From positions 1 to 23,504 of the forward strand of contig JAXGJB010000041.1 of the NCBI GenBank assembly GCA_040770465.1: a DNA stretch of 23,504 bases, written 5' to 3'. The position numbers were made by a program, and so were the translations under genes. This DNA comes from Methanothrix sp. (GTDB lineage: Archaea; Halobacteriota; Methanosarcinia; Methanotrichales; Methanotrichaceae). Position 1 is the first letter of the stretch. Every line of letters starts with the position of its first letter. Under the pieces are notes generated by a model that saw nothing but the letters and a program-made list of their open reading frames with translations, did no database searches and was not told where the DNA came from. Positions 12,409-23,504 of the stretch are shown here, piece after piece.

Positions 12409-14286
12409 ATGTGGACGGTTGACGACTCGGTCAGCCTTTACGGCGTCGACGGCTGGGGCAACGGGTACTTCACCATAACCGAGGGGGGAAACCTCGCGGT
12501 ATCGCCCCGGAAAGAGGCGGGGGGGACCGTCGACATCATGGAGATCGTCGATGAGATCAACAGGTCGGGGAACGTCCAGTTTCCCATCCTCTTCCGGTTC
12601 CCCCAGATCCTCGAAGACCGGCTCCAGGAGATAAACGGCGCTTTTCTCGCCTCCATGAGGGAATTGGATTATCGGGGCGGGTACAGGCTCGTCTTCCCCA
12701 TGAAGGTGAACCAGAAAAAGGAGGTAGTGGAGTACATCGTCAGCGGCGGACGGGAGCTGAACGTCGGCCTGGAGGTGGGAACTAAGGCGGAGCTTCTCGC
12801 GGCCCTCTCCCTGGGCCTCGGCCCCGAGGCCCTGATCATCTGCAACGGCTACAAGGACCAGGATTACCTCAAGCTCGCCCTCAAGTTCGGCGAGACGAAC
12901 AGGATCGTCATCGTCATCGACGTATTCGAGGAGATATTCGACCTTCTCCGGTGTTCAAAAGAGCTTGGCGCAAAGCCGATCCTGGGCCTGCGGACGAAGC
13001 TATTCTCTCGGGGAAGCGGCCGGTGGGAGGAGTCTGGCGGCGAGCTATCCAAGTTCGGCCTCTCCACCGCTGAGATCCTGGAGTCGATCCGGATCCTCTC
13101 GGAGAACGGGATGATCGACCGGCTGAAGATGCTCCACTTTCACATAGGCTCTCAGATAACGGACATCCGGAAGATCAAGATCGCCATGAACGAGGCGGCA
13201 AGGATCTACGCCAAGGTGAGAAAGGTGGCCGACGTGGAGTACTTCAATGTCGGCGGCGGGCTCTCCGTCGACTACGACGGAACCCAGACCGCGACTCCGG
13301 CCAGCGCCAACTACACCCTCCAGGAGTACTCCAACGACGTCGTCTACACCCTCCAGAGGACCTGCGACGAGGAGGAGGTCCCCTGTCCCACCATAGTCTC
13401 CGAGAGCGGTCGGGCCATCGCCGCCTACCATTCATTCCTCGCCTTCAAGGTGATCGGAAAGAAGAACTCGAAGGAGGGGCTGGAAGTCACGCCTTCCGAG
13501 GACGACCCCGTCCAGATAGAGGATATGCGCCAGGCCCTGGATAATATGGACCTGGAGAACTACCCCGAGTTCTATCACGACGCCCTCCACTACCGGGAGG
13601 AGCTCTTCGACGCCTTCAACCTGGGGAACATCGGGCTTGAGGAGAGGTCGAAGGGCGACCTCCTATTCTGGAAGGTCTGCCAGAAGGTGGCCTCCTTCGC
13701 CGAGGCCGACGAGAACGACTCCGAGGAGTTTGAGAGCTTGAAGAAGCTTCTGAGCAAGAAGTACATCGGAAACTTCTCCCTCTTCCAGTCGGTCCCGGAC
13801 ATGTGGGGGGTCCAGCAGATCTTCCCCATCATGCCGCTTCACAGGCTCGGCGAGGAGCCTAAGGTGAGAGGGACGATCGCAGACATCACCTGCGACTCCG
13901 ACGGCGAGATCAGGTCCTTTGCTGGAGAGAACGCCGACTTCATAGCCCTCCACGATCTGAGAAAGGACGAGGACTACCACCTGGGCACCTTCCTTCTTGG
14001 GGCGTACCAGGACACCCTGGGAGACTTCCACAACCTTCTCGGCTGCGTCAACGAGGTTCACGTCACCGTAGAGGACGAGGACGACGGCTGGAGGATATCG
14101 AAGGTCGTTCGGGGGGATGTCTGCGAGAAGCTCCTCCGGTTCTTCAACTATGAGCCCGAAGAGCTCCTGGGCGAGGTGGCGTCGCGTTGCTGCGGCGGCG
14201 AGGCCGAAGGTGAGAGGGCTAGGGAGACTATCCAAAAGGCCCTCGGCGAGTACTCCTACTTCAAGAACAGGTACATCAGATCTTAG
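12409..14286 (+). CDS. speA: Biosynthetic arginine decarboxylase (PLP-dependent, alanine-racemase fold)
   Basis: YGVDGWGNGYF, FPMKVNQ (PLP Lys), CNGYKD, HFHIGSQI, VGGGLSVDYDG, SESGRA, DITCDSDG and GAYQDTLGDFHNL. SD aggaggagg. Confidence 0.96.
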   Translation: MWTVDDSVSLYGVDGWGNGYFTITEGGNLAVSPRKEAGGTVDIMEIVDEINRSGNVQFPILFRFPQILEDRLQEINGAFLASMRELDYRGGYRLVFPMKVNQKKEVVEYIVSGGRELNVGLEVGTKAELLAALSLGLGPEALIICNGYKDQDYLKLALKFGETNRIVIVIDVFEEIFDLLRCSKELGAKPILGLRTKLFSRGSGRWEESGGELSKFGLSTAEILESIRILSENGMIDRLKMLHFHIGSQITDIRKIKIAMNEAARIYAKVRKVADVEYFNVGGGLSVDYDGTQTATPASANYTLQEYSNDVVYTLQRTCDEEEVPCPTIVSESGRAIAAYHSFLAFKVIGKKNSKEGLEVTPSEDDPVQIEDMRQALDNMDLENYPEFYHDALHYREELFDAFNLGNIGLEERSKGDLLFWKVCQKVASFAEADENDSEEFESLKKLLSKKYIGNFSLFQSVPDMWGVQQIFPIMPLHRLGEEPKVRGTIADITCDSDGEIRSFAGENADFIALHDLRKDEDYHLGTFLLGAYQDTLGDFHNLLGCVNEVHVTVEDEDDGWRISKVVRGDVCEKLLRFFNYEPEELLGEVASRCCGGEAEGERARETIQKALGEYSYFKNRYIRS

Positions 14287-14434
14287 ACTTCGAGCCCGGG
14301 TAGACGTTCCGGGCTCGGTCGCCCTCCCACCAGGAAGCGGAAGCATACGGGTACTTGTAGGTCCTCGCCCCCCCATTCGCCGTGGACTTCACCTTCTCCG
14401 CCGTGTAGACGCTCAGGTCCATCAGTCGCGCCCT
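14276..14434 (-). pseudogene. Degenerate remnant of a small basic protein gene
   Basis: Hand translation (RARL)MDLSVYTAEKVKSTANGGARTYKYPYASASWWEGDRARNVYPGSKSKI*. A tandem 6-bp duplication gives ASAS. It resembles, from memory only, a small Methanothrix family with YxYWxASWREGxxxRNVHLGS. Confidence 0.45.
14291..14317. terminator. GC-rich hairpin just after the speA stop
   Basis: cgagcccgg-gtagacgtt-ccgggctcg, a perfect 9-bp inverted repeat. No T-tract follows, so function is uncertain. Confidence 0.35.
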
Positions 14435-14528
14435 CGGGGGTCATTGACTGGAGATGATCTGTTCCGCTCTGTTCGCTTTCGCTCAGGTAGAACTCTGCTA
14501 TTGTTCTATGGCCCGCCTGATGTTCCTC

Positions 14529-17525
14529 TCATCCTTTGCTCTTAATCTCGCGTTCAAGAGCATCGATGTTGCCTTGCACCGTCGCCGTGCGGGGGTGGTT
14601 CTCGCCCATCCGATCCCGGAATATTTTGAGAGACCGCTCGAAAAGCTCTTTAGCGCCAGCGAGGTCGCCCATGTCCTTCAGGACCCCACCGAGGTTGTTT
14701 ACATCTCTTGCCACGTTGGGATGGTCGGGGCCGAGCGTCTTCTCGTCGATCTTGAGGGCACGCTCGAAAAGCTCTTTGGCGCTAGCGAGGTCTCCCATGT
14801 CCTGCAGGACGTTACCGAGGTTGTTGGCATAATTGGCCACTTGGGGATGATCGGGACCGAGCGTCTTCTCGTCGATCTTGAGGGCACGCTCGAAAAGCTC
14901 GTTGGCACCAGCGAGGTCTCCCATGTCCTGCAGGACCATACCGAGGTTGTTGGCATAAATGGCCACTTGGGGATGGTCGGGGCCATACGCCTTCTCGCCG
15001 ATCTTGAGGGCCCGCTCGTAGAGCTCTTTAGCGCCAGCGAGGTCTCCCATGTCCTTTAGGGCTAATCCGAGGTTGTTGGCACAAGTGGCCACGTGGGGAT
15101 GGTCGGGGCCGTACACCTTCTCGCCGATCTTGAGGGCCCGCTCGTAGAGCTCTTTGGCGCCAGCGAGGTCTCCCATGTCCTGCAGGATCGTACCGAGGTT
15201 GTTGGCATAAATGGCCACTTGGGGATGGTCGGGGCCGAGAGCCTTCTCGTCGATCTTGAGGGCTCGCTCGAGATGCAATTTGGCGCCCTCGAGGTCGCCC
15301 ATGTCCTTCAGGACCATTCCGAGGTTGTTGACCCTGATGGCCACGTTTGGATGGTCGGGGCCGAGAGCCTTCTCGTCGATCTTGAGGGCTCGCTCGAGAT
15401 GCAATTTGGCGCCCTCGAGGTCGCCCATGTCCTTCAGGACCATTCCGAGGTTGTTGGCTATCGTGGCCGCGTTTGGATGGTCGGGGCCGAGAGCCTTCTC
15501 GTCGATCTTGAGGGCTCGCTCGAGATGCAATTTGGCGCCCTCGAGGTCGCCCATGTCCTTCAGGACCCCACCGAGGTTGTTGACCCTGATGGCGACGGTG
15601 GGATGGTCGGAGCCGAGGGTCTTCTCGTCGATCTTGAGGGCCCGCTCGTAGAGCTCTTTGGCGCCCTCGAGGTCGCCCATGTCTTGCAGGACCAAACCGA
15701 GGTTGTTGGTGTCTCTGGCCACGTTGGGATGGTCGGAGCCGAGGGTCTTCTCGTCGATCTTGAGGGCCCGCTCGTAGAGCTCTTTGGCGCCAGTGATGTC
15801 GCCCATGTCCTTCAGGACCCCACCGAGGTTGTTGATTATGGTGGCAACCTCCTGGTGCTCTCGCCCGTAAACAATCTCGGCGATAAGCAAAGCCCGTTCA
15901 TAAAGGGCCTCCGCCACTTTGAACTCAGCTCGCCCATTTAAGTAAAGTCCAGCTTGATTCAATAAATGCTGTGTTTCTTTCTTGGCAGCTCCGAGCCCCT
16001 CCGCATGCCCCGCCGCGGCGATGGCGTGGGGCAACAAAAGCGAGCATTCAGGCCAGGTTCGAACGTCTAGGCCCTCCTGAGGGAAGGCGTCGTTCACTAG
16101 CTGGACCGCGGCCTCGGCCCACCTTTTCCGCTCTTTCTCTGGTAATTGGTCCCGCACCACCGCCTGGACCAGCCGATGGACCGATATGGAATCGTTGGCG
16201 ACGGTCAAGAGAGAGTATCGCTTCGGTGCGGCCACAGCGCCGTCAAACTCAAGCGGAGTTTTCACCGCGGAGGCTAAAGGCTCAGGCAGGCGCTCGGCGC
16301 CCGCCACCAGAAGTGGCTTGGGTATGTTGTCTGGGGCCAGGAAAGCGCAGAGGCGGAGGAGGTCAGCGCCCGCGTCGGATTCGTCCTGGACCATCTTGAA
16401 AGAGATCTCCCAGGTGGTGGCGACGGTAGCTGGGTAAGATGAGGGGTTGCCACGTTTTAGAACCTTCGTCTGCTCTTCCTGGAACCGTTCGAGGTAGTCA
16501 GAGAGAGTTATGCCCGTCTCCTCGATGTAAGCCCCGGCCTGCTCCAGAGCCAGGGGGAGGTCTCCGAGGGCGTCAGCAAGGGCTTCGGCCCCGTCCTTCC
16601 CCCCGGTCCGTTTGCGGAGAAATTCGATGGACTCCTCTCGGCTGAAGACGTCGACGGGTAGCGTCTTTGCTGTGCCGCCCCAGTTGGACTCCCGGGAGGT
16701 GATGATCACGTGACCCCCGCTTACTTTGGGCAGGTAGTCCTTGATGTCTTCGGGGTTCTGGGCGTTATCGAAGACCAGGAGCCAGCCGTCGTTTTGCTCC
16801 AGCCAGCTCTTCACCGCCGCGATGATTACGCTCTGGTCCCGAGAGGTCTTCTCGGGGAGGTCGAGCTTCACGGCCAGACCGGCGTAATCAACGGCTAAGG
16901 TGGCGGTATCCTCGGATCGGACCCACCATATGACCTTGTAGTTGCCCATATGGCGGTACGCATACTCAAGGGCGAGCTGGGTTTTGCCGACACCGCCGAG
17001 GCCGGTGATGGCCTGATAATCGGTAACTGCTGCGCGCTCTCCCGACCTCAGGGCTTCCTGGAGCTTCTCCAAAAGGTCCACTCGGCCGGTGAAGTTGGGG
17101 TTGTGGGATAGGGGGATGTTGCGAATTGACTCAGTAGTTATAGAGGTATTTTCTTCAGTAGTTAGCCGTTTATTTTCGATACGTCTCTTATAAAGGAATT
17201 CATAAATTGCTATCAAAGCGCCAATGGTACCTATGATGGCTAATACCCAACTAAGAATATATTTGATTGAGTCAGATGTTTTAGTTGTGGTGGATTTTTC
17301 CGTCAGTGTCTCCTCAGGCGTGCTTTTGTTGGGGCTGGCTGTAGCGATAGGTTCTGGGTTTGCTGAGGTTACGTTATCTTCATTTCCAACTCCCATCTGA
17401 CCTGTGCCGCTCTCATTGCCCGTCGTTTGAGCCAGCGCGGTTGCAGCTACCGATAGCATCAGCACCGCCAGGACGATGAGCGGCTTCGATCTCGTCGAGT
17501 ATCCCTCCTGCCAAATGCCACACAT
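14529..17525 (-). CDS. Membrane-anchored STAND (NB-ARC-like) NTPase with C-terminal TPR array; FxSxx-COOH-system-TPR-like, NLR-like architecture
   Basis: Signal peptide RSKPLIVLAVLMLSVAATALA|Q, Thr/Ser/Asn-rich stalk, TM YILSWVLAIIGTIGALIAIYEFLY-KRR. Then NPNFTGR, Walker A GLGGVGKT, Walker B WLLVFDNA, sensor-1 IITSR, GDLPLAL, VHRLVQ and 42-aa TPRs. The ORF-track start 17732 overlaps the divergent gene; the real start is probably 17525 or 17495. Confidence 0.9.
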   Translation of the reverse strand: MCGIWQEGYSTRSKPLIVLAVLMLSVAATALAQTTGNESGTGQMGVGNEDNVTSANPEPIATASPNKSTPEETLTEKSTTTKTSDSIKYILSWVLAIIGTIGALIAIYEFLYKRRIENKRLTTEENTSITTESIRNIPLSHNPNFTGRVDLLEKLQEALRSGERAAVTDYQAITGLGGVGKTQLALEYAYRHMGNYKVIWWVRSEDTATLAVDYAGLAVKLDLPEKTSRDQSVIIAAVKSWLEQNDGWLLVFDNAQNPEDIKDYLPKVSGGHVIITSRESNWGGTAKTLPVDVFSREESIEFLRKRTGGKDGAEALADALGDLPLALEQAGAYIEETGITLSDYLERFQEEQTKVLKRGNPSSYPATVATTWEISFKMVQDESDAGADLLRLCAFLAPDNIPKPLLVAGAERLPEPLASAVKTPLEFDGAVAAPKRYSLLTVANDSISVHRLVQAVVRDQLPEKERKRWAEAAVQLVNDAFPQEGLDVRTWPECSLLLPHAIAAAGHAEGLGAAKKETQHLLNQAGLYLNGRAEFKVAEALYERALLIAEIVYGREHQEVATIINNLGGVLKDMGDITGAKELYERALKIDEKTLGSDHPNVARDTNNLGLVLQDMGDLEGAKELYERALKIDEKTLGSDHPTVAIRVNNLGGVLKDMGDLEGAKLHLERALKIDEKALGPDHPNAATIANNLGMVLKDMGDLEGAKLHLERALKIDEKALGPDHPNVAIRVNNLGMVLKDMGDLEGAKLHLERALKIDEKALGPDHPQVAIYANNLGTILQDMGDLAGAKELYERALKIGEKVYGPDHPHVATCANNLGLALKDMGDLAGAKELYERALKIGEKAYGPDHPQVAIYANNLGMVLQDMGDLAGANELFERALKIDEKTLGPDHPQVANYANNLGNVLQDMGDLASAKELFERALKIDEKTLGPDHPNVARDVNNLGGVLKDMGDLAGAKELFERSLKIFRDRMGENHPRTATVQGNIDALEREIKSKG
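14604..15863 (-). repeat. Ten tandem 126-bp (42-aa) TPR-coding repeats, preceded by one degenerate unit (15864-15989)
   Basis: Consensus PDHPxVAxxxNNLGxVLxDMGDLxGAKELxERALKIDEKxLG. ccgaggttgtt recurs on the plus strand at 126-nt spacing. Confidence 0.95.
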
Positions 17526-17676
17526 CTTTATGTACAAAAAGTTTCGGGAGGAAAGACGCGTCTGGACCAGAAACCTCCTTTTGGCCCGACCACTTTTATT
17601 CAGGGCATCGGCCTGACCGCGCCTCGTGAGGCCCCAGCCGGTAAGGTCTTGTATCATCGGGCCAACCCACCACCAG

Positions 17677-18114
17677 ATGTTCTTCGGCCGGAAGAGAGGC
17701 GGCGAGGGCGAGATCAAGGCCTTCGTCTCCATAAACTATGGAAGTGATAGGATCAGGCACCAGAAGGTTAAGCTTGCCTCCGGGGCCTCTGTCCTCGACG
17801 CCCTGAGGGCTTCGGCCGAGGTCGTCGCCACCCCGGACGAGAGCGCCACCGGCCACCTGGGATCGATGGTGACGGTAATAGACGGTTTTTCAAACGACAT
17901 CGACCACGCCTGGCTCTACTACGTCTTCGAGCGGGGCGATGCTGGCTGGCGGATCCCAATGGAGATGCCCGATAGCCTCGCGGTCTCAGACGGCATGAAG
18001 ATCGGATGGAGGCTCTACAACTTCGGGGAACGGGGGCCGGTCCCAAGGGAGGGCCCCCTCTGGTCGAGCCGCTGCGCCAGCAAGACCAGGACCTGCGCCC
18101 GCCAGTTCCCTTGA
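17677..18114 (+). CDS. DUF4430 / transcobalamin-like beta-domain protein
   Basis: From ATG 17677: SINYG...SVLDAL...MVTVIDG...WLYYV...VSDGMKIGW, the DUF4430 pattern. No signal peptide visible. Confidence 0.7.
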   Translation: MFFGRKRGGEGEIKAFVSINYGSDRIRHQKVKLASGASVLDALRASAEVVATPDESATGHLGSMVTVIDGFSNDIDHAWLYYVFERGDAGWRIPMEMPDSLAVSDGMKIGWRLYNFGERGPVPREGPLWSSRCASKTRTCARQFP

Positions 18115-18264
18115 AGGAAAGGCCGCAAACCGCTGAGACCCGCCACCGAGGGATCGCCCTGATTTCTTCATCCCAATTATGGGAAGAAGACTAGGCGTTT
18201 CGGACGATGCCCGATAGAACTAAGTACGTTACAGCCTTACTTAATTGCTGGAGGAATCCGGCAT

Positions 18265-18663
18265 ATGACTGATTATTGGGCAAGGTGGTGCGAGAAACTT
18301 CAGCAAATCGCGAAGCCCTACGAGCCTCTCGATGTGGAGATGGCTCCTCCAATACTTCCCAGAGAGGGCCTACTCGAGTATTACAGGTGCCTTGAGAGCC
18401 TTTTGAGGCCCCTCGACCTCCTCCAGGAGAACAGGGAATCACCCGGTGACCGCCTGATCGAGAACTACGAAGCCCTGGAGGAACGGCTCGTGAGCCTATC
18501 TGCAGTCCATCCGTGGTTCTCAGAGGACGAGTCCACCCAGGAGCTGATCGCTCTTCTTGAAGTCCTCACCGCCAATCGGAGCGTCGATTGGGAGCTATTC
18601 GATGAGAAGATCAAGATCCTGAAGAGGAGGATCGAGGAGCTTGAGAGGAGATCGGGCTCCTGA
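18265..18663 (+). CDS. Hypothetical protein, acidic and predicted helical
   Basis: 132 aa ORF with SD ggagg upstream and a coiled-coil-like C-terminus (FDEKIKILKRRIEELERR). No family recognised. Confidence 0.7.
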   Translation: MTDYWARWCEKLQQIAKPYEPLDVEMAPPILPREGLLEYYRCLESLLRPLDLLQENRESPGDRLIENYEALEERLVSLSAVHPWFSEDESTQELIALLEVLTANRSVDWELFDEKIKILKRRIEELERRSGS

Positions 18664-18716
18664 TTGCCCGACAATAGAAGATGCTGACGATGAGGGATGC
18701 TCATAAGGACGGCGCA

Positions 18717-18862
18717 TAAAAGAGTCGAGGATGCCCGGCCCCGTCGAGGGGTCGGGGCACCTCCTCTGCCATCAAGGCAGCGGTGATGTCGTGCGTCTCA
18801 CCGCATGATGGCGGGCTCGGTTGCGGTTCTTCTATGGATAGATGGAAACGCTTTACACGACA
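18717..18862. ncRNA. Candidate structured small RNA
   Basis: Three abutting hairpins at 18727-18763, 18766-18780 and 18780-18804. Minus-strand BRE/TATA cgaaaagtttatta at 18897..18884 has no convincing CDS behind it. Confidence 0.35.
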
Positions 18863-18968
18863 AACTGAGATCATACCATTTAGTAATAAACTTTTCGATT
18901 GAACTGCTACGAAAGTCGAACGTCCCTGACCTTCGAGGCAGGAGATGGGATATAGGATCAGAAGAGAA

Positions 18969-18994
18969 GGGCGCAAGTTTCGATGCTTGCGCCC
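18969..18994 (-). terminator. Hairpin downstream of the tRNA-Tyr/tRNA-Asp pair
   Basis: gggcgcaag-N8-cttgcgccc, a 9-bp stem followed on the minus strand by ttctcttc. Confidence 0.5.
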
Positions 18995-19003
18995 CCCATT
19001 CAG

Positions 19004-19076
19004 CGCCCGGACCGGGAGTCGAACCCGGGTCGAAGCCTCGACAGGGCTTCATGATAGGCCTCTACACTATCCGGAC
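19004..19076 (-). tRNA. tRNA-Asp (GTC)
   Basis: Acceptor GTCCGGA/TCCGGGC+G, anticodon arm AAGCC-CTGTCGA-GGCTT, T arm CCGGG-TTCGACT-CCCGG. Confidence 0.97.
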
Positions 19077-19087
19077 TCAAAGCAAGG

Positions 19088-19194
19088 TCCCGCCTCCCAG
19101 ATTCGAACCGGGGACATCGCGGTAGCCGCACGGTGCGCCTTCTGGCGCGAAACCTACTACAGCCGCGCACTCTACCAGGCTGAGTTAAGGCGGG
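19088..19194 (-). tRNA. tRNA-Tyr (GTA) with 33-nt intron at 37/38 (intron 19124-19156)
   Basis: Acceptor CCCGCCT/AGGCGGG+A with the archaeal Tyr C1-G72 pair. CGCGG-CTGTAG[intron]A-CCGCG. Bulge-helix-bulge: CUGU pairs with intron GCGG, bulges AG^U and CU^A. Confidence 0.96.
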
Positions 19195-19361
19195 TCCAAC
19201 GATGCAAAGCCATTCTCGTATTTAGCCCTTTCGATTAGTATGGGCTTGGCGCATATCCGTTTCTGAAAGTGGAGCGTCAAAAGCTATAAACGAGGATCAC
19301 TGTCTTTCTCCGGGCTGTCAAGCCCAAAGACCCTCCCTCCTGGCAAAAGGTTTGTGATATC

Positions 19362-19895
19362 ATGCTGATTGGTCTAATGTCCGACTCCCACGACAACTTC
19401 CCCGGCCTTCTGGAGGCCGTGGCGATCTTCAAGAAACGGAACGTCGAGATGATCCTCCACGCCGGCGACGTAATAGCCCCCGGAATGTGCTACGCCTTCG
19501 AGGGGTGGACTGGGGAACTCAAGCTTGTCTACGGGAACAACGATGGCGACCGAACTGGCCTCAAGCGCGACTTCGGTCGGGTGGGGGGCGAGTTTCTCGA
19601 GGATTTCGGCGAGGTCGAGGCCGACGGCAGATCGATCGCCCTCCTCCACGGAACCTACGAGCCCCTGGTGACGTCTCTCGTGGATTCGGGCCGCTACGAC
19701 GTCGTCGTCCGGGGGCACGACCACCACGTGAGGGTCGTTCCTGGAGACTCCCTGATGATCAACCCCGGGGAGGTCTGGGGCCACTTCACCGGCCGGAAGA
19801 CGGTGGCGATCCTGGATACAGAGTCGCTTGCAACGGAGATCGTCGAGATGGGATCTCGCCCCTCCATCCTCGACATGACCGGTCGGCGTCCATAA
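19362..19895 (+). CDS. Metallophosphoesterase (YfcE/MJ0936 family)
   Basis: SDSHDN, HAGD, GNND, LHG, GHDH and INPG motifs. Confidence 0.92.
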   Translation: MLIGLMSDSHDNFPGLLEAVAIFKKRNVEMILHAGDVIAPGMCYAFEGWTGELKLVYGNNDGDRTGLKRDFGRVGGEFLEDFGEVEADGRSIALLHGTYEPLVTSLVDSGRYDVVVRGHDHHVRVVPGDSLMINPGEVWGHFTGRKTVAILDTESLATEIVEMGSRPSILDMTGRRP

Positions 19896-19947
19896 TCGGG
19901 AAACGGGAGCGGATCGTGGCCTATCTTGTGGAGGCGTGACGAAAGGC

Positions 19948-20400
19948 ATGACAGAAGGCATCTTTCTTGAGCCCCTCGGCGTCTATCTCCTGGTGGAGAG
20001 GCGCGATGGCCTGATCGGGAAGACCAGATTCTCCGCCGAGAGGCCGGGGGGCTCCGTCCCGCCGGAGGACGAAGAGGCTCTTCTGAGATGCTGGCCTGGA
20101 GGCGAGGAGGTCCCCTGGGACCTCCTAGACCTCTCGGGTCTCACCGAGTTTCAGAGGGGGGTTTTGGAGGTCACGTCCAGGATCCCTCTCGGCGAGAGCC
20201 TGACCTATGGCCAGGTGGCCGAAAGGCTCGGCAGGCCCAAAGCCGCGAGGGCTGTGGGCCAGGCTCTGGGAAAAAATCCGTTCCCGCTGATAATTCCATG
20301 CCACAGGGTGGTGGGATCGAGGAGCATCGGAGGCTACAGTTCCGGCGTCGAGCTGAAACGGAGGCTTCTGGAGATCGAGAGGGAGATCTGCCAGAAATAG
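19948..20400 (+). CDS. ogt: Methylated-DNA-[protein]-cysteine S-methyltransferase (alternative start GTG 19936)
   Basis: TYGQVA, AARAVG, NPFPLIIPCHRVV (active-site PCHR), GGYS and KRRLLEIE. Confidence 0.95.
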   Translation: MTEGIFLEPLGVYLLVERRDGLIGKTRFSAERPGGSVPPEDEEALLRCWPGGEEVPWDLLDLSGLTEFQRGVLEVTSRIPLGESLTYGQVAERLGRPKAARAVGQALGKNPFPLIIPCHRVVGSRSIGGYSSGVELKRRLLEIEREICQK

Positions 20401-20434
20401 GGAGGCTAATAGGGAGTCTTTTTGGGACGACGTC

Positions 20435-21151
20435 TCAGACGGGCGAAGGACGCGCCCAGGATGGTGAAAGTTCCCCCCTCAGAATTCGGCGCTTCACATC
20501 GTTTACATGCTGATCTGCCAAAAAACACGGCTCAGGAAGCTTGTGGTTCCGGAGGTACCGCCGGGCGAGGTCCAGGGCGGCCTCGACCGAAACCCGGTGA
20601 CCTGGAGCCACCACGATCGGTCTGCACCTCTTTTTTGATAAGAACACGTACCCCACCGTTTCTCCCTGATGGACCAGGGGCGAGGCGTCCCCCACCCGAC
20701 GGGGCGGATCGAAGGTGCCGCAGAGGACGTTCTTGCTGACGCCCACTGTGGGCATGTCCAGGGCGACGCCGATCATGCTCGCGAGCCCCGCCCTCCGGGG
20801 ATGGTTGATCCCGCAGCCGTCGACGAAGAGGACTGTGGGGGCCGGGTCGAGCCTCCTCGCTGCCTCCACCGCGGCAGGTCCCTCCCGGAAAAAGAGAAGA
20901 CCGGGAATGTAGGGAAAAGTCGTTTCGATGACCGCCCAGGATCTGGATGGAGGCTGGAGGGACGAACCTATGGCGACGGCCCCGCTGATCACCAGCTCTT
21001 CGCCGTCGTTTTTGGATATGAAGGCCTGGTCGACTCCGGCTATCACCTCTTCGGAGAACCGGTCCACCAGGACGACCCTGGCTGCGACGTCGTCCTGGAG
21101 GGAGAATAAACGCCTCCTCTCTTCGGCGGAGGGGGCCGGAGAGGAGGGCAC
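20435..21151 (-). CDS. nfi: Endonuclease V
   Basis: GVDQAF, FPYIPGLLFFREGP, VDGCGINHPRRAGLAS, PTVGVSK, PGHRVS and KLPEP. Confidence 0.95.
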   Translation of the reverse strand: MPSSPAPSAEERRRLFSLQDDVAARVVLVDRFSEEVIAGVDQAFISKNDGEELVISGAVAIGSSLQPPSRSWAVIETTFPYIPGLLFFREGPAAVEAARRLDPAPTVLFVDGCGINHPRRAGLASMIGVALDMPTVGVSKNVLCGTFDPPRRVGDASPLVHQGETVGYVFLSKKRCRPIVVAPGHRVSVEAALDLARRYLRNHKLPEPCFLADQHVNDVKRRILRGELSPSWARPSPV

Positions 21152-22153
21152 CTACTTCGCCCCGGTGTAGGGGACGGTCTGGCTGAGGTTTATGGCGAGC
21201 TCGCCGATGTTTTTGATGTAGTCGAGCATACGCTCGATGCTGGTGGCCACCATCCTCAGGAGGGCGTCCTCGTGTTCGTCCGATGAGCTGGCGGCCGATA
21301 CCATCGTGTTGATCTGTCTTCGGAGCTGCCGGGAGAGCTCGATCACCTCGTTCGCCTTCACCGAGTTGAGCAAGACAAGGGACGATATCGAGTCCTCGAT
21401 GAGGCCCATAAGCTGCGGCGATATCCGGCTCATCTCATCGATTATGTCGGCAGGAAGGGTGCAGTCGCACTTGAGGATCATCTCCGCAACCTTGGCAGCG
21501 TGGTCTGCCATCCGCTCGAGGTTTGTGGCGGCCCTGGTGTAGTTGAAGGCGGTGATGGGGTCGAGGGACTCCTGCTTCACCGAGCCGGACCTCAGGATCT
21601 CGGTGAACTGGCGCGAGACGAGCAGATAAAGCCTGTCTACGTCGTCGTCCCTCTGGATGACGTCGGCGGCCATCTCCCGGTCGTTGGTCAACATGGAGCC
21701 GAGGGCGTCCTGGATCATCGACCTCACCACCGTCTTTATCCTCCGGAGGGCCCGCTCCGACTGGAGCTCCTCGGGGTCGATCAGATCCTGTATCAGGACC
21801 TTGTTCACCGTCTCCTCCAGGATCTCCGGGCCGATCAGCTTCTGAACGATCGAGTGGATGTCCCTCTTCTGGTCTGCGGTCATGTGGGTCGAGGCGACCT
21901 CGATCGTCCTGTACCCTGAGACGTAACAGCCGATGATGTCCCTCACCAGGGCGTCACCAACTTTGTCGGCGATCTCAAGCCTGGTGGCCAGCTCCCTCTC
22001 GGACCTGTCGGGGGTTAGGACGAGAGCGCCGTTCTCGCTCTGGTTGATGTAGATCAAGGAGCCTGGCTGGATGTCGTTTTTTACCGCCCAGAGCTTGGGG
22101 AGGGAGACGATGAATGTCGACTTTCCCGTCCGCTGAACTTTCCTGGTCTCCAT
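21152..22153 (-). CDS. phoU: Phosphate uptake regulator, AbrB-like N-terminus plus PhoU domains
   Basis: METRKVQRTGKSTFIVSLPKLW (AbrB-type), then DDDVDRLY and LERMADHA (PhoU). Confidence 0.92.
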   Translation of the reverse strand: METRKVQRTGKSTFIVSLPKLWAVKNDIQPGSLIYINQSENGALVLTPDRSERELATRLEIADKVGDALVRDIIGCYVSGYRTIEVASTHMTADQKRDIHSIVQKLIGPEILEETVNKVLIQDLIDPEELQSERALRRIKTVVRSMIQDALGSMLTNDREMAADVIQRDDDVDRLYLLVSRQFTEILRSGSVKQESLDPITAFNYTRAATNLERMADHAAKVAEMILKCDCTLPADIIDEMSRISPQLMGLIEDSISSLVLLNSVKANEVIELSRQLRRQINTMVSAASSSDEHEDALLRMVATSIERMLDYIKNIGELAINLSQTVPYTGAK

Positions 22154-22166
22154 AAAACCCGCTCAA

Positions 22167-22841
22167 TCAGTTGAGATGTTCCCGCTTCGCCTCGACCATG
22201 TATATGATGCTCTCGCATATGTTGCATACGTGATCTGCGATCCTCTCCAGGTGCTTGTTGACCAGGAGAAGGGGCGTTGCATCCTCGATGAGGTCGGGGT
22301 TACCTCCGATGATCTTGAGGAGGGTGTCTCTCACCTTCTGGTAGAGGGAATCCACCTCGTAATCCCATTTCGTCGTCTCCCGGGCGAGTTCAGCATCGTT
22401 CTCCTTGAAGGCACGGTTGGCATGGACCAGCATCTGCCCTGATATCTCCGCCATCCTCGGTATGTTCTTCAGGCTCTTGACGTGGACCTTGTTTTTGGAG
22501 TGGACCACGATCCGAGCTATGTCCACCGCAAGATCGCCGATCCGCTCAAGGTCGATATCGATCTTAAGGGTGGTTACGATCAGCCTGAGGTCTTTTGCCA
22601 TGGGTTGCTGGAGGGCCAAAAGCTGCATGCAACGCTTCTCTATCCTCAGGCTCAGATCGTTGATCATCTGGTCGTCTCTTATGACCTCTCGCGCCTTATC
22701 CACGTCGTACTCGCGGAGGGCATCCACCGACTTGGCCACCGCCACGCCGACCAGATCCACCAGATTCTCCGCGTCTATCTTGAGCTCTTCAAGCTCCTTG
22801 TGATAACGCTCTCTATAGGGACTCATCTCACCCCACTCCAT
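22167..22841 (-). CDS. phoU: Phosphate signalling protein PhoU (start 22841 or 22826)
   Basis: LALQQPMAKDLR, DLERIGDLAVDIA and LERIADHVCNICE. Confidence 0.95.
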   Translation of the reverse strand: MEWGEMSPYRERYHKELEELKIDAENLVDLVGVAVAKSVDALREYDVDKAREVIRDDQMINDLSLRIEKRCMQLLALQQPMAKDLRLIVTTLKIDIDLERIGDLAVDIARIVVHSKNKVHVKSLKNIPRMAEISGQMLVHANRAFKENDAELARETTKWDYEVDSLYQKVRDTLLKIIGGNPDLIEDATPLLLVNKHLERIADHVCNICESIIYMVEAKREHLN

Positions 22842-22849
22842 CGATTAAC

Positions 22850-23504
22850 TCATCCGAACCGGCCCGTTATGTAATCCTCTGTGCTCTTCTTTTGGGGGTT
22901 CTCGAAGATCTCTTTCGTCTCGCCGAACTCGATCAGCTCGCCGAGGAGGAAGTAGGCGGTGTAGTCGGAGACCCGAGCCGCTTGCTGCATGTTGTGGGTC
23001 ACGATCACCTGGGTGTACGACCCTCTCAGCTCGTCCATCAGCTCCTCGATCTTCCCCGTCGATAAAGGGTCCAGAGCGCTGCAGGGCTCGTCGAAGAGGA
23101 TGACGTCCGGCTTCATTGCCAGGGCCCTGGCGATGCAGAGCCTCTGCTGCTGACCGCCGGATAGCCCCATGGCAGGCTTATCGAGCCGGTCGGAGACCTC
23201 GCCCCAGAGGGCGGCCTTTTTGAGGCTCTCTTCAACGATCTTGTCCACGTTCTTCACTCCGTGAATCCGAGGGCCGTAGGCGATGTTGTCGTAGATGGAC
23301 ATGGGAAAGGGGTTTGGCTTCTGAAATACCATACCGATGTTCTTTCGAAGCTCCACCACGTCCGTATCTTTGTCGTAGATGTTGACGCCGTTGTAGAGGA
23401 CCTCGCCATCGATACGGACGATGTCGACGAGGTCGTTCATCCGGTTGAGACAGCGGATGAATGTGGACTTCCCGCACCCCGAAGGGCCTATCAGCGCCGT
23501 GATA
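22850..23504 (-). CDS. pstB: Phosphate ABC transporter ATP-binding protein (5' end outside the window)
   Basis: The frame stays open to the window edge: [24 protein letters not shown]. Also [28 protein letters not shown] and YITGRFG. Confidence 0.97.

Follow-up and report, generated by a model that had tools for sequence, protein, structure and literature searches.

The window, the whole 23,504-nt stretch of Methanothrix DNA that was analysed, carries a gene for a STAND NTPase of NB-ARC (AP-ATPase) type, whose C-terminal part is a tetratricopeptide repeat (TPR) sensor. It is a solitary gene amid housekeeping genes, with deoxyhypusine synthase, arginine decarboxylase, tRNA-Asp, a metallophosphoesterase, MGMT, endonuclease V and PhoU as neighbours in the window. 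Its features, with the evidence for each, are as follows.

14274..17644, no strand: 3.37-kb segment (the gene with its flanks) that is absent from the matching locus in related genomes, where about 110-165 nt stand instead
14529..17525, minus strand: whole coding sequence, 998 aa plus stop, comprising leader, stalk, transmembrane (TM) helix, NB-ARC and TPR (stop-free translation)
17430..17525, minus strand: signal-peptide-like leader of Sec type, residues 1-32 (hydrophobicity scan; helix 15-31 in the AlphaFold2 model)
17262..17429, minus strand: stalk, residues 33-88 (56 aa), of low complexity in T/S/E/N/P and predicted to be extracellular (composition and sequons)
17190..17261, minus strand: predicted single TM helix (YILSWVLAIIGTIGALIAIYEFLY), residues 89-112 (Kyte-Doolittle maximum 2.29; within model helix 85-122)
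17106..17189, minus strand: KRR stop-transfer, followed by a short cytoplasmic linker that runs to the junction motif NIPLSHNPNFTGR, residues 113-140 (sequence)
16086..17105, minus strand: NB-ARC module (NBD, HD1, WHD), residues 141-480 (Pfam, NCBIfam, AlphaFold2, Foldseek)
16980..17003, minus strand: Walker A, G175-L-G-G-V-G-K-T182 (canonical in sequence)
16764..16784, minus strand: Walker B of 'DN' type, W248-L-L-V-F-D253-N254 (F252, D253 and N254 invariant in 46 sequences)
14532..16085, minus strand: TPR superhelix of 24 helices, residues 481-998 (AlphaFold2 pLDDT 94.6, pTM 0.89)
14626..15834, minus strand: tandem array of 126-nt (42-aa) TPR units (Tandem Repeats Finder, 9.6 copies, 86% matches)

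The reading frame given in the initial annotation (14529-17525, minus strand) is intact over its 998 codons. The open frame extends 5' of the ATG at 17525, as far as 17732, and the gene call in the database (P0002) uses a 1042-aa form. The ATG at 17525 is nevertheless the best start, because homologue N-termini (MEESPTRSRP..., LEESTTRSKP...) begin within a few codons of it. Three metatranscriptome runs from one anaerobic-digester study contained 0.13, 0.06 and 0.00 of the sampled words. Their contigs on 14300-18800 fall at 14300-14426, 17714-18078, 17740-17906, 18412-18714 and 18514-18669; none lies on the gene, a result that speaks neither for nor against its expression.

Domain anatomy of the protein

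A rule-based reading divides the leader into an n-region with R12 and K14, an h-region at 15-29 and the sequence A30-L31-A32|Q33. Together with the model helix at 15-31, this ALA|Q end fits the signal peptide that had been proposed at the outset. Sixteen distinct homologue copies preserve the leader at both the protein and the DNA level, and their pairwise differences at codon positions 1, 2 and 3 number 406, 161 and 555, a coding-type pattern of substitution.

The stalk is rich in T (12), S (7) and E (6), with G, N and P also abundant. It was originally described as about 55 aa with three N-glycosylation sequons and is in fact 56 aa long, with sequons at N37-E-S, N51-V-T and N66-K-S. AlphaFold2 models it as disordered (pLDDT 32-40), with residues 32-84 lacking structure. 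The 29 distinct stalks of this kind contain 57 sequons in a total of 926 aa (6.2 per 100), compared with 84 in 17157 aa (0.49 per 100) of cytoplasmic parts and with 17.7 expected from composition-preserving shuffles. This enrichment, 12-fold over cytoplasmic parts and 3-fold over shuffles, exceeds chance, although the stalks are mutually related and so are not independent samples. The stalk is probably Sec-exported and N-glycosylated.

A Kyte-Doolittle scan of the 998 aa (19-residue window) finds hydrophobic stretches solely at 16-34 and 89-107. The latter, the only one beyond the leader, corresponds to the single TM helix of the initial annotation, and the claimed KRR follows directly on its C-terminal side as K113-R114-R115. 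The N-terminal part of the AlphaFold2 model likewise has helices at 15-31 and 85-122. An ESM Atlas search with residues 1-135 gave no usable match. Because the N-terminal slot would hold a Sec-exported stalk and one TM helix, the mature product is predicted to be a type I membrane protein. The cytoplasmic placement of the NTPase and TPRs, as first suggested, fits both the positive-inside rule and the distribution of sequons. If the leader were left uncleaved, the N-terminus would form a two-helix hairpin, and the NTPase would still be cytoplasmic.

The NB-ARC-like NTPase recognised in the initial annotation is borne out by Pfam NB-ARC (PF00931) at residues 151-313 (26.5 bits, cut-off 23.5) and by NCBIfam NF040586 over residues 141-840 (684.1 bits, cut-off 300); Pfam DUF7779 matches at 381-465. 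The full AlphaFold2 model has a pLDDT of 78.8, exceeding 85 over most of residues 180-530. Foldseek matches it to Apaf-1 (3sfz, E 1.6e-13; 1z6t, 2.5e-12), NRC2/3/4, CED-4, ZAR1 and Roq1, and the modelled core fold is like that of Apaf-1, CED-4 and plant NLRs. Walker A residues G175, G177, G178, G180 and K181 are invariant in 46 aligned sequences, as are S277-R278, L320/P324/L327/E328 and H450, which, following NB-ARC usage, we take to include the sensor-1 Arg and the GLPL-type and MHD-type residues, respectively. Both Walker motifs had been called intact. Walker A is indeed canonical and the Walker B Asp is kept, but the second acidic residue of Walker B is replaced by Asn, making it 'DN' rather than 'DD/DE'. 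The motif is predicted to be intact for Mg2+ binding, and ATP turnover may be slow because of the 'DN' type. Going by NB-ARC proteins in general, nucleotide-dependent switching would still be allowed.

As originally read, the C-terminus consists of TPRs: Pfam TPR_12 and TPR_10 match in 11 stretches each, and the model forms a superhelix of about 11 TPR hairpins that Foldseek matches to the TPRs of APPBP2, OGT and kinesin light chain. The nine TPR units compared are 75-95% identical to each other in nucleotide sequence. Unit positions with four to five residue types (16, 19, 20 and 26) are all in helix A. Moreover, comparing two collinear contigs (C41 and C43) in 50-aa bins gives 84-98% identity throughout residues 1-400, while the TPR arrays fail to align; the second contig has an intact version of 795 aa. 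Variation focused in helix A, and an array that differs between these contigs, constitute sensor diversification.

Exchange of the N-terminal slot and accessory status

A search of genome contigs with the single protein as query returned no relative, and with an alignment (A1) as query it returned 80 loci. Among 120 relatives listed, with core identities of 53-62%, 47 carry the membrane module, 45 carry TIR_2 and none carries both; a further 20 have another N-terminus of at least 100 aa and eight a short one. One relative (P0094) carries HNH. The window's own genome encodes a TIR_2 copy (on C1, residues 17-133, E 1.3e-28) with 59-60% core identity and, additionally, an NB-ARC-TPR protein with two TM helices. 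In membrane, TIR and coiled-coil forms alike, the junction with the core lies immediately ahead of the NPNFTGR motif. The idea that a membrane module occupies the effector slot is thus upheld, as the same core carries either it or TIR_2.

The initial annotation had also called for a tabulation of N-terminal domains in Methanotrichaceae homologues. Of 30 distinct N-termini from Methanotrichaceae loci, 19 combine leader, stalk and TM helix; 16 of them pass a threshold for two hydrophobic segments and three were judged by eye. Two of the 19 come from the window's genome. Another six, from a different genus, have leaders of unrelated sequence and stalks rich in N and S. In the core tree these six fall within a separate clade of seven rows (support 100), apart from the window's clade of 46 rows (support 96). 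Residues at -3 and -1 are small in both leader types (A-L-A in the window's type; S-L-A, S-F-A and S-Y-A in the unrelated one). TM helix and stalk sequences vary across the family while the arrangement stays, and the predicted architecture, not the sequence, is what the family conserves. In many homologues the cytoplasmic linker from TM helix to NB-ARC bears a conserved motif that the window's protein lacks.

We surveyed 101 Methanotrichaceae genomes, namely the window's and 100 others. At E <= 1e-20, the core is present in 42 of them (1-6 copies each) and absent from 59. The window's N-terminal module is nearly restricted to its own genus: it occurs in 13 of 15 other genomes of that genus, in none of 55 in the largest other genus, and in one of three and one of two genomes of two further genera.

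Relative to each of the four same-genus genomes that showed both flanks, the gene is an insertion. A mobile-element signature was looked for and rejected: the two insertion boundaries have no direct repeat of at least 8 nt, and the only two 8-nt inverted matches there are of a kind expected by chance. Truncated, frameshifted or stop-bearing relatives exist, and in one same-genus genome (G022, 99% complete) the gene is reduced to relics. At the window and four homologue loci we found no shared partner gene and no defence-island context; the neighbours are all housekeeping genes. Patchiness, relics and insertion make up accessory behaviour typical of conflict genes.

Relation to known systems

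The core belongs to NF040586, the 'FxSxx-COOH system tetratricopeptide repeat protein', which has the same combination of NB-ARC, DUF7779 and TPR_10/TPR_12. This family is widespread in Actinomycetota, Chloroflexota, Acidobacteriota, Chlorobiaceae and Myxococcota, and Streptomyces, Frankia, Nonomuraea, Sorangium and Chlorobium are among the named genomes that encode the core. The window's protein differs in having a leader-stalk-TM module at its N-terminus rather than TIR. An FxSxx-COOH RiPP system was considered and rejected: the best candidate for the radical-SAM/SPASM maturase FxsB (TIGR04269) in this one genome, which is 94.85% complete, lies on another contig and scores 128 bits against a cut-off of 370. 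Because no FxsB exceeds the cut-off in the genome, the word 'system' in the family name does not apply.

Avs and bacterial NACHT proteins that have a transmembrane module at the N- or C-terminus share the tripartite layout of output module, STAND NTPase and repeat sensor. A figure legend on Avs7 includes TM among the modules fused to its sensor, bacterial NACHT architectures include a TM module, and the introduction of the Tmn preprint names 'pore-forming membrane proteins' as STAND effectors. In contrast to these, the window's NTPase is of the NB-ARC/AP-ATPase clade, and its gene is archaeal and outside any defence island. Its membrane module consists of a predicted cleavable leader, a sequon-rich ectodomain and one helix. 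The proposed check for a known defence system came back without one, as no defence-system model in PADLOC-DB, Avs included, matched, and the only matches were to two generic TPR models (E 4e-12 and 5.5e-5). The original suggestion of an undescribed system was too strong, because the core is a named family and fusions of TM segments to STANDs are already in print, to go by the Avs7 legend and the NACHT architectures. What is still new is the type I form (leader, sequon-rich stalk and one TM helix) and its recurrence in Methanotrichaceae. We found no description of either in the literature, where the supplements of the Avs7, NACHT and Tmn papers may list such forms.

Bell-domain/BASS amyloid-signalling NLR pairs belong to multicellular prokaryotes. 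According to the 2020 preprint of Dyrka et al., these NB-ARC/TPR NLR-like proteins are found preferentially in prokaryotes that form filaments or aggregates, Methanosarcinales among them, have a membrane-targeting output, and include a Bell protein from Methanothrix soehngenii. Bell/BASS is a two-gene system, in which the N-terminal motif of the NLR matches a motif at the C-terminus of the Bell protein, whereas the membrane module is fused in the window's protein and the linker has no such motif. Such a pair was rejected here: there is no adjoining small partner gene, and a genome search for the relatives' linker motif found one site, inside the C53 paralogue itself.

By sequence, just one protein of solved structure was matched, Streptomyces AfsR (SARP-NB-ARC-TPR; PDB 8k60, 8jke), at E 8.8e-6 over query residues 14-223. 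AfsR is a transcription activator with a DNA-binding SARP N-terminus, and its way of acting would be impossible for the window's protein because the latter is predicted to be membrane-anchored. Plant CC-NLR resistosomes (ZAR1, Sr35, NRC2/3/4) match at the level of the NB-ARC fold (Foldseek E 1e-9 to 1e-10). The idea that may be shared is the gathering of N-terminal helices at the membrane by oligomerisation, a likeness in possible mode of working and not in family membership. Plant CC helices are soluble before activation and insert into the membrane afterwards, whereas the window's helix would be inserted co-translationally with the N-terminus exported, and its sensor is TPR, not LRR.

Candidate mode of action and alternatives

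We favour, with a probability of about one half, an NLR-like conflict sensor made by one gene, in which oligomerisation would cluster TM helices already inserted in the membrane. An invader-derived protein, probably viral, would be bound by the A-helix face of the TPR superhelix, and the closed, ADP-type state of NB-ARC would thereby be released. Oligomerisation of the NB-ARC modules would then gather the inserted TM helices into a bundle and make the membrane leaky, so that the infected cell of the filament stops growing or dies. The protein would thus resemble a plant CC-NLR resistosome with its helices inserted in advance. Against this conflict-sensor reading, one TM helix per protomer would be a minimal effector, and the variable TM sequence is no less to be expected of a simple anchor than of a specific pore. 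The missing PADLOC defence model, the housekeeping neighbourhood and the 'DN'-type Walker B also count against it. We know of no solved STAND with an effector of one TM helix per protomer.

NLR-like STAND proteins embody an immune logic common to plants, animals, fungi and bacteria. To our knowledge, archaeal examples are almost unstudied and none from a methanogen has been tested. The window's family has the merit of simplicity: a single gene, with an output module that appears to be only an exported stalk and one membrane helix. If oligomerising so minimal a module arrests or kills the cell, it would show how little an NLR effector needs, and would be a prokaryotic parallel to resistosome channels. 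More speculatively, Methanotrichaceae may repeatedly have built NLR-type receptors as type I surface glycoproteins, in which a cytoplasmic ligand would induce an NB-ARC oligomer and then an ion-conducting helix bundle. Were this tentative extension true, that bundle would be the archaeal equivalent of the plant resistosome channel, and one that resides in the membrane constitutively. Clustered glycosylated stalks might also mark the infected cell, or signal its state, in the sheathed filament. Methanothrix is a key acetate-using methanogen of digesters and wetlands, and its virus-defence repertoire is therefore of practical interest.

Is the membrane module an effector at all? The leader, stalk and TM helix could merely place the NB-ARC-TPR part at the inner membrane face, where viral entry or egress proteins appear, while another protein kills or signals. 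One candidate route, by analogy with plant sensor and helper NLRs, would be mixed oligomers with the TIR-bearing paralogue. The free variation of TM and stalk sequences within a kept architecture is consistent with such tethering, as is the presence in the same genome of the TIR-NB-ARC-TPR copy and the 2-TM protein. The linker motif of many homologues, though not of the window's protein, could recruit a partner. We nevertheless think tethering unlikely: no neighbour gene is conserved at the window or the four homologue loci, and the mutual exclusion of membrane module and TIR among the 120 relatives listed is as expected if each is itself an output module. Should the module be an anchor only, NLR-type sensing in these archaea would still be organised at the membrane.

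Nor need a STAND switch be immune. Like the regulators AfsR and MalT, the protein could be a membrane-anchored switch or scaffold, for example in building the envelope or sheath, in organising the filament, or in the recognition of kin or self between cells. AfsR is its closest solved relative by sequence and MalT is among the fold matches, the neighbours are housekeeping genes, PADLOC gives the protein no defence model, and a Nature 2026 survey describes non-defence STAND clades interspersed with defence clades. However, the gene is dispensable and patchy, given the core's absence from 59 of 101 genomes, the gene's own absence from the syntenic site in four of four relatives and the relics in G022. 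The closest cores bear TIR or HNH, and the TPR array is replaced between the two collinear contigs, all of which makes a non-immune role improbable. Finally, the gene could be a recently inserted copy that is silent or decaying, out of use like its truncated relatives, several of which are fragmentary or stop-bearing. We consider this very unlikely, as the 998-codon frame is intact with every NB-ARC motif present, the leader has coding-type substitutions in its 16 copies, and the 795-aa version on the second collinear contig is also intact.

Architecture of the 998-residue protein

The window's gene is an accessory, single-gene NLR-like protein with a membrane module in the output position. 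Its 998 codons run without interruption (translation of 14529-17525, minus strand), and the open frame reaches farther upstream, to 17732; one database gene call (P0002) uses a 1042-aa form. The start chosen in the initial annotation, ATG 17525, is best supported because homologue starts fall a few codons at most from it (e.g., MEESPTRSRPLIVL and LEESTTRSKPLIVL) and because the leaders of two homologues (L040 and L050) lack an internal Met entirely.

A Kyte-Doolittle scan (19-residue window) finds only two hydrophobic stretches, residues 16-34, preceded by R12/K14 and ending in A30-L31-A32/Q33, and residues 89-107, followed by K113-R114-R115. Between them lies a 56-residue stalk (33-88), of which the 55 residues counted (34-88) include 12 T, 7 S, 6 E, 5 G, 5 N and 4 P, with sequons at N37ES, N51VT and N66KS. 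The scan and the sequence thus agree with the earlier prediction of a leader, a stalk with three sequons and one TM helix followed by KRR. The AlphaFold2 model, built from a 46-sequence alignment, has a helix at 15-31, an unstructured segment at 32-84, a helix at 85-122 and a confident globular part after. Sequons number 57 in the 926 aa of 29 distinct stalks, versus 17.7 expected from shuffles, a comparison that is no formal test since the stalks are related to each other, though the set includes stalks without detectable mutual similarity; cytoplasmic parts hold 84 sequons in 17157 residues. Pairwise differences among 16 distinct leader copies number 406/161/555 at codon positions 1/2/3, as would be expected for coding sequence kept hydrophobic. 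In these 16 copies the leader DNA (about 17430-17495 in the window, and its homologues) is far more conserved than the adjoining stalk, for which gene conversion among copies or constraint on the mRNA 5' end could account.

The NB-ARC-like NTPase and TPRs initially annotated are borne out by Pfam matches (NB-ARC at 151-313, over cut-off; DUF7779 at 381-465; TPR_12 and TPR_10 in 11 stretches each) and by the modelled fold. The best structural matches of the model are Apaf-1 (E 1.6e-13), NRC2/3/4, CED-4, ZAR1 and Roq1, with MalT and the bacterial STAND-TPR protein 6mfv ranked lower; AfsR is the sole solved relative found by sequence alone. All 46 aligned sequences share, unchanged, Walker A, the Walker B Asp, S277-R278, a GLPL-type motif and H450. 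The claim of intact Walker motifs needs one amendment: the Walker B motif (residues 252-254, nt 16764-16772) reads D-N instead of D-D/E, with the Asn invariant in 46 of 46 aligned members, and ATP hydrolysis may be slow across the whole family. Against the NCBIfam model NF040586, 'FxSxx-COOH system TPR protein', the match reaches 684 bits (cut-off 300); the name describes no system here, because no FxsB maturase in the window's genome reaches its own cut-off.

The C-terminal 518 residues are modelled as a 24-helix TPR superhelix (pLDDT 94.6), which resembles TPR domains found in APPBP2, OGT and the kinesin light chain. At 14626-15834 Tandem Repeats Finder detects an array with a period of 126 nt (9.6 copies, 86% matches), and nine 42-aa units are 75-95% identical to each other in DNA. 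The unit positions at which four or five different residues occur (16, 19, 20 and 26) all lie inside the modelled A helices, which are 16 residues long. The A helices of TPR proteins form the concave surface that binds ligand, and a few variable positions amid high between-repeat identity, as in this array, have been described for the repeat sensors of fungal and bacterial NLRs.

Alternative N-termini on related cores

A search with residues 1-480 found 6682 proteins at E ≤ 0.001 among 8000 candidates scored. Among the best 120 of the 6682, 47 show either a hydrophobic module at the N-terminus or the leader motif, a query containing the N-terminus having favoured membrane forms near the top; TIR_2, an effector-type domain, occurs in 45 (precomputed Pfam lists), another N-terminus of at least 100 aa in 20, and a short one in 8. 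No protein among the 120 matches listed combines the membrane module with TIR_2, and one (P0094) carries HNH, also effector-type. Several of these forms occur within the window's genome, and the junction of every form with the core falls just ahead of NPNFTGR.

Further versions in the window's genome, by contig of the same assembly
C43: second copy, sharing the window's module
C53: third copy, same leader, different stalk and helix
C1: TIR_2 version, core identity 59-60%
C55: short version
C31: more distant two-helix version

Contig C43 is collinear with window positions 13933-23503 through housekeeping genes (87-97% identity), interrupted by one indel of about 8.4 kb; it is probably a co-binned second strain (mixed assembly) or a large duplication, so 'paralogue' counts for this genome are to be read with caution. 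The C55 type is an NB-ARC-TPR protein of about 560 aa with no N-terminal module and about 40% core identity; most genomes of the genus have one match apiece, and it looks like a stable orthologue, in contrast to the variable membrane forms.

Among 100 other Methanotrichaceae genomes, residues 1-115 were matched in 13 of 15 from the window's own genus (g1), none of 55 from the largest other genus (g2), and one of three and one of two from the further genera g6 and g12. Matches to the NB-ARC core at E ≤ 1e-20 occur in 15/15 g1 and 18/55 g2 genomes, and in 42/101 overall with the window's genome counted in (1-6 per genome). Tabulating the N-termini of the family's NB-ARC homologues, as the initial annotation had proposed, gave leader, stalk and TM in 19 of 30 distinct N-termini (sixteen by a two-hydrophobic-segment threshold, three by eye), and two of these 19 are from the window's own genome. 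Another genus contributes six of the 19, with unrelated leaders (such as ...SLA/DNNSS and ...SFA/NNSS) and sequon-dense stalks rich in N and S. The other eleven comprise three TIR, one coiled-coil, one single-helix, five short and, called by eye, one nucleoside phosphorylase-like N-terminus.

In a tree of 135 cores built with FastTree, one 46-row clade (support 96) contains all 33 g1-type rows and a separate 7-row clade (support 100) is formed by the g2-type rows, with two-helix and single-helix forms in clades apart; labels change 28 times, versus 72.8 when shuffled. The tree is quick, midpoint-rooted and has long branches, and we use it solely to conclude from these sequences that the membrane forms are not one single group. 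Two MAGs, one of Methanothrix sp. and one of an uncultured Methanotrichaceae member, supply the closest named relatives that include the N-terminus; the core without the N-terminal module extends to many bacterial phyla.

Genomic setting and candidate mechanism

The gene lies among deoxyhypusine synthase, arginine decarboxylase, tRNA-Asp, metallophosphoesterase, MGMT, endonuclease V and PhoU proteins. Both flanking genes were located in 4 of 5 same-genus genomes, where they are 1.4-1.9 kb apart versus 5.1 kb in the window. By blastn, 14274-17644 has no counterpart in two sampled genomes of the genus (G050 and G022), which have about 110-165 nt in its place; no repeat was found flanking this insertion. 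Three further genomes of the genus have homologues at another site, syntenic among the three and flanked by a 336-aa ORF and a DUF3307 gene, where the 99%-complete G022 has leader relics only, and more relics and frameshifted copies are present elsewhere. In the window's genome, a 113-aa frame on contig C6 (about 39370-39530) encodes the leader and stalk start and then a stop, just upstream of an apparent tRNA gene per translation. It is 57% identical to residues 11-64 and appears, from its sequence, to be a relic of another copy.

Two small ORFs near the gene match no Pfam or NCBIfam family:
17677-18114, plus strand, small ORF
18265-18663, plus strand, small ORF
Both are kept at the same locus in some relatives and covered by metatranscriptome contigs.

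In 50-aa bins, identity between the proteins of the window and C43 is 84-98% through residue 400 and falls to 52-70% over residues 401-500, and their TPR arrays do not align. We suggest an induced-proximity mechanism in which a ligand would be bound by the TPR array, the NB-ARC would change nucleotide state and then oligomerise, and the resulting clustering of pre-inserted helices would lead to loss of membrane integrity; we give this reading as a whole a probability of about 0.5. Its main rival keeps all steps but the last, the membrane module being an anchor alone with the effector elsewhere. We consider a role outside immunity less probable, given that the gene can be dispensed with, that its cores are common to TIR and HNH forms, and that the sensor array has been replaced between collinear contigs.

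Relation to described STAND proteins

In the available portions of the sources, a 2026 Nature survey of prokaryotic STANDs describes a tripartite logic and includes 'TM' among modules fused to the Avs7 sensor, a bacterial NACHT preprint gives TM modules among others, and the introduction of the Tmn preprint names pore-forming membrane proteins as STAND effectors. For multicellular prokaryotes, Methanosarcinales and Methanothrix soehngenii among them, passages of Dyrka et al. (preprint) report Bell domains as well as NLR-like proteins of the NB-ARC/TPR kind; those of Kaur et al. 2020 mention TM segments in other components only; and those of a DGR paper discuss some STAND-associated targets of a bacterium that have signal peptides and TM segments. 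We found neither a leader-stalk-TM form of an NB-ARC-TPR protein nor any account of this family in Methanotrichaceae in the literature searched, whose supplements may contain such architectures. Judged against these portions, the initial label of an undescribed system goes too far, as TM-fused STANDs are already in print, and would apply to the leader-stalk-TM form at most.

The membrane module can evidently be multiplied, judging from the sequence of the relative P0036, in which the TM-helix unit and its flank occur in three to four tandem copies, with four hydrophobic segments ahead of the NB-ARC. Many relatives (P0004, P0005, P0009, P0013, P0035 and others) share, in the cytoplasmic linker that joins TM helix to NB-ARC, a conserved motif of about 30 aa (...DSAISFGDxSPxIKADRIEGGVHITY...), which may resemble the strand-rich motifs known at NLR N-termini. 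The window's protein lacks this motif, and its one occurrence in the window's genome is in the C53 copy.
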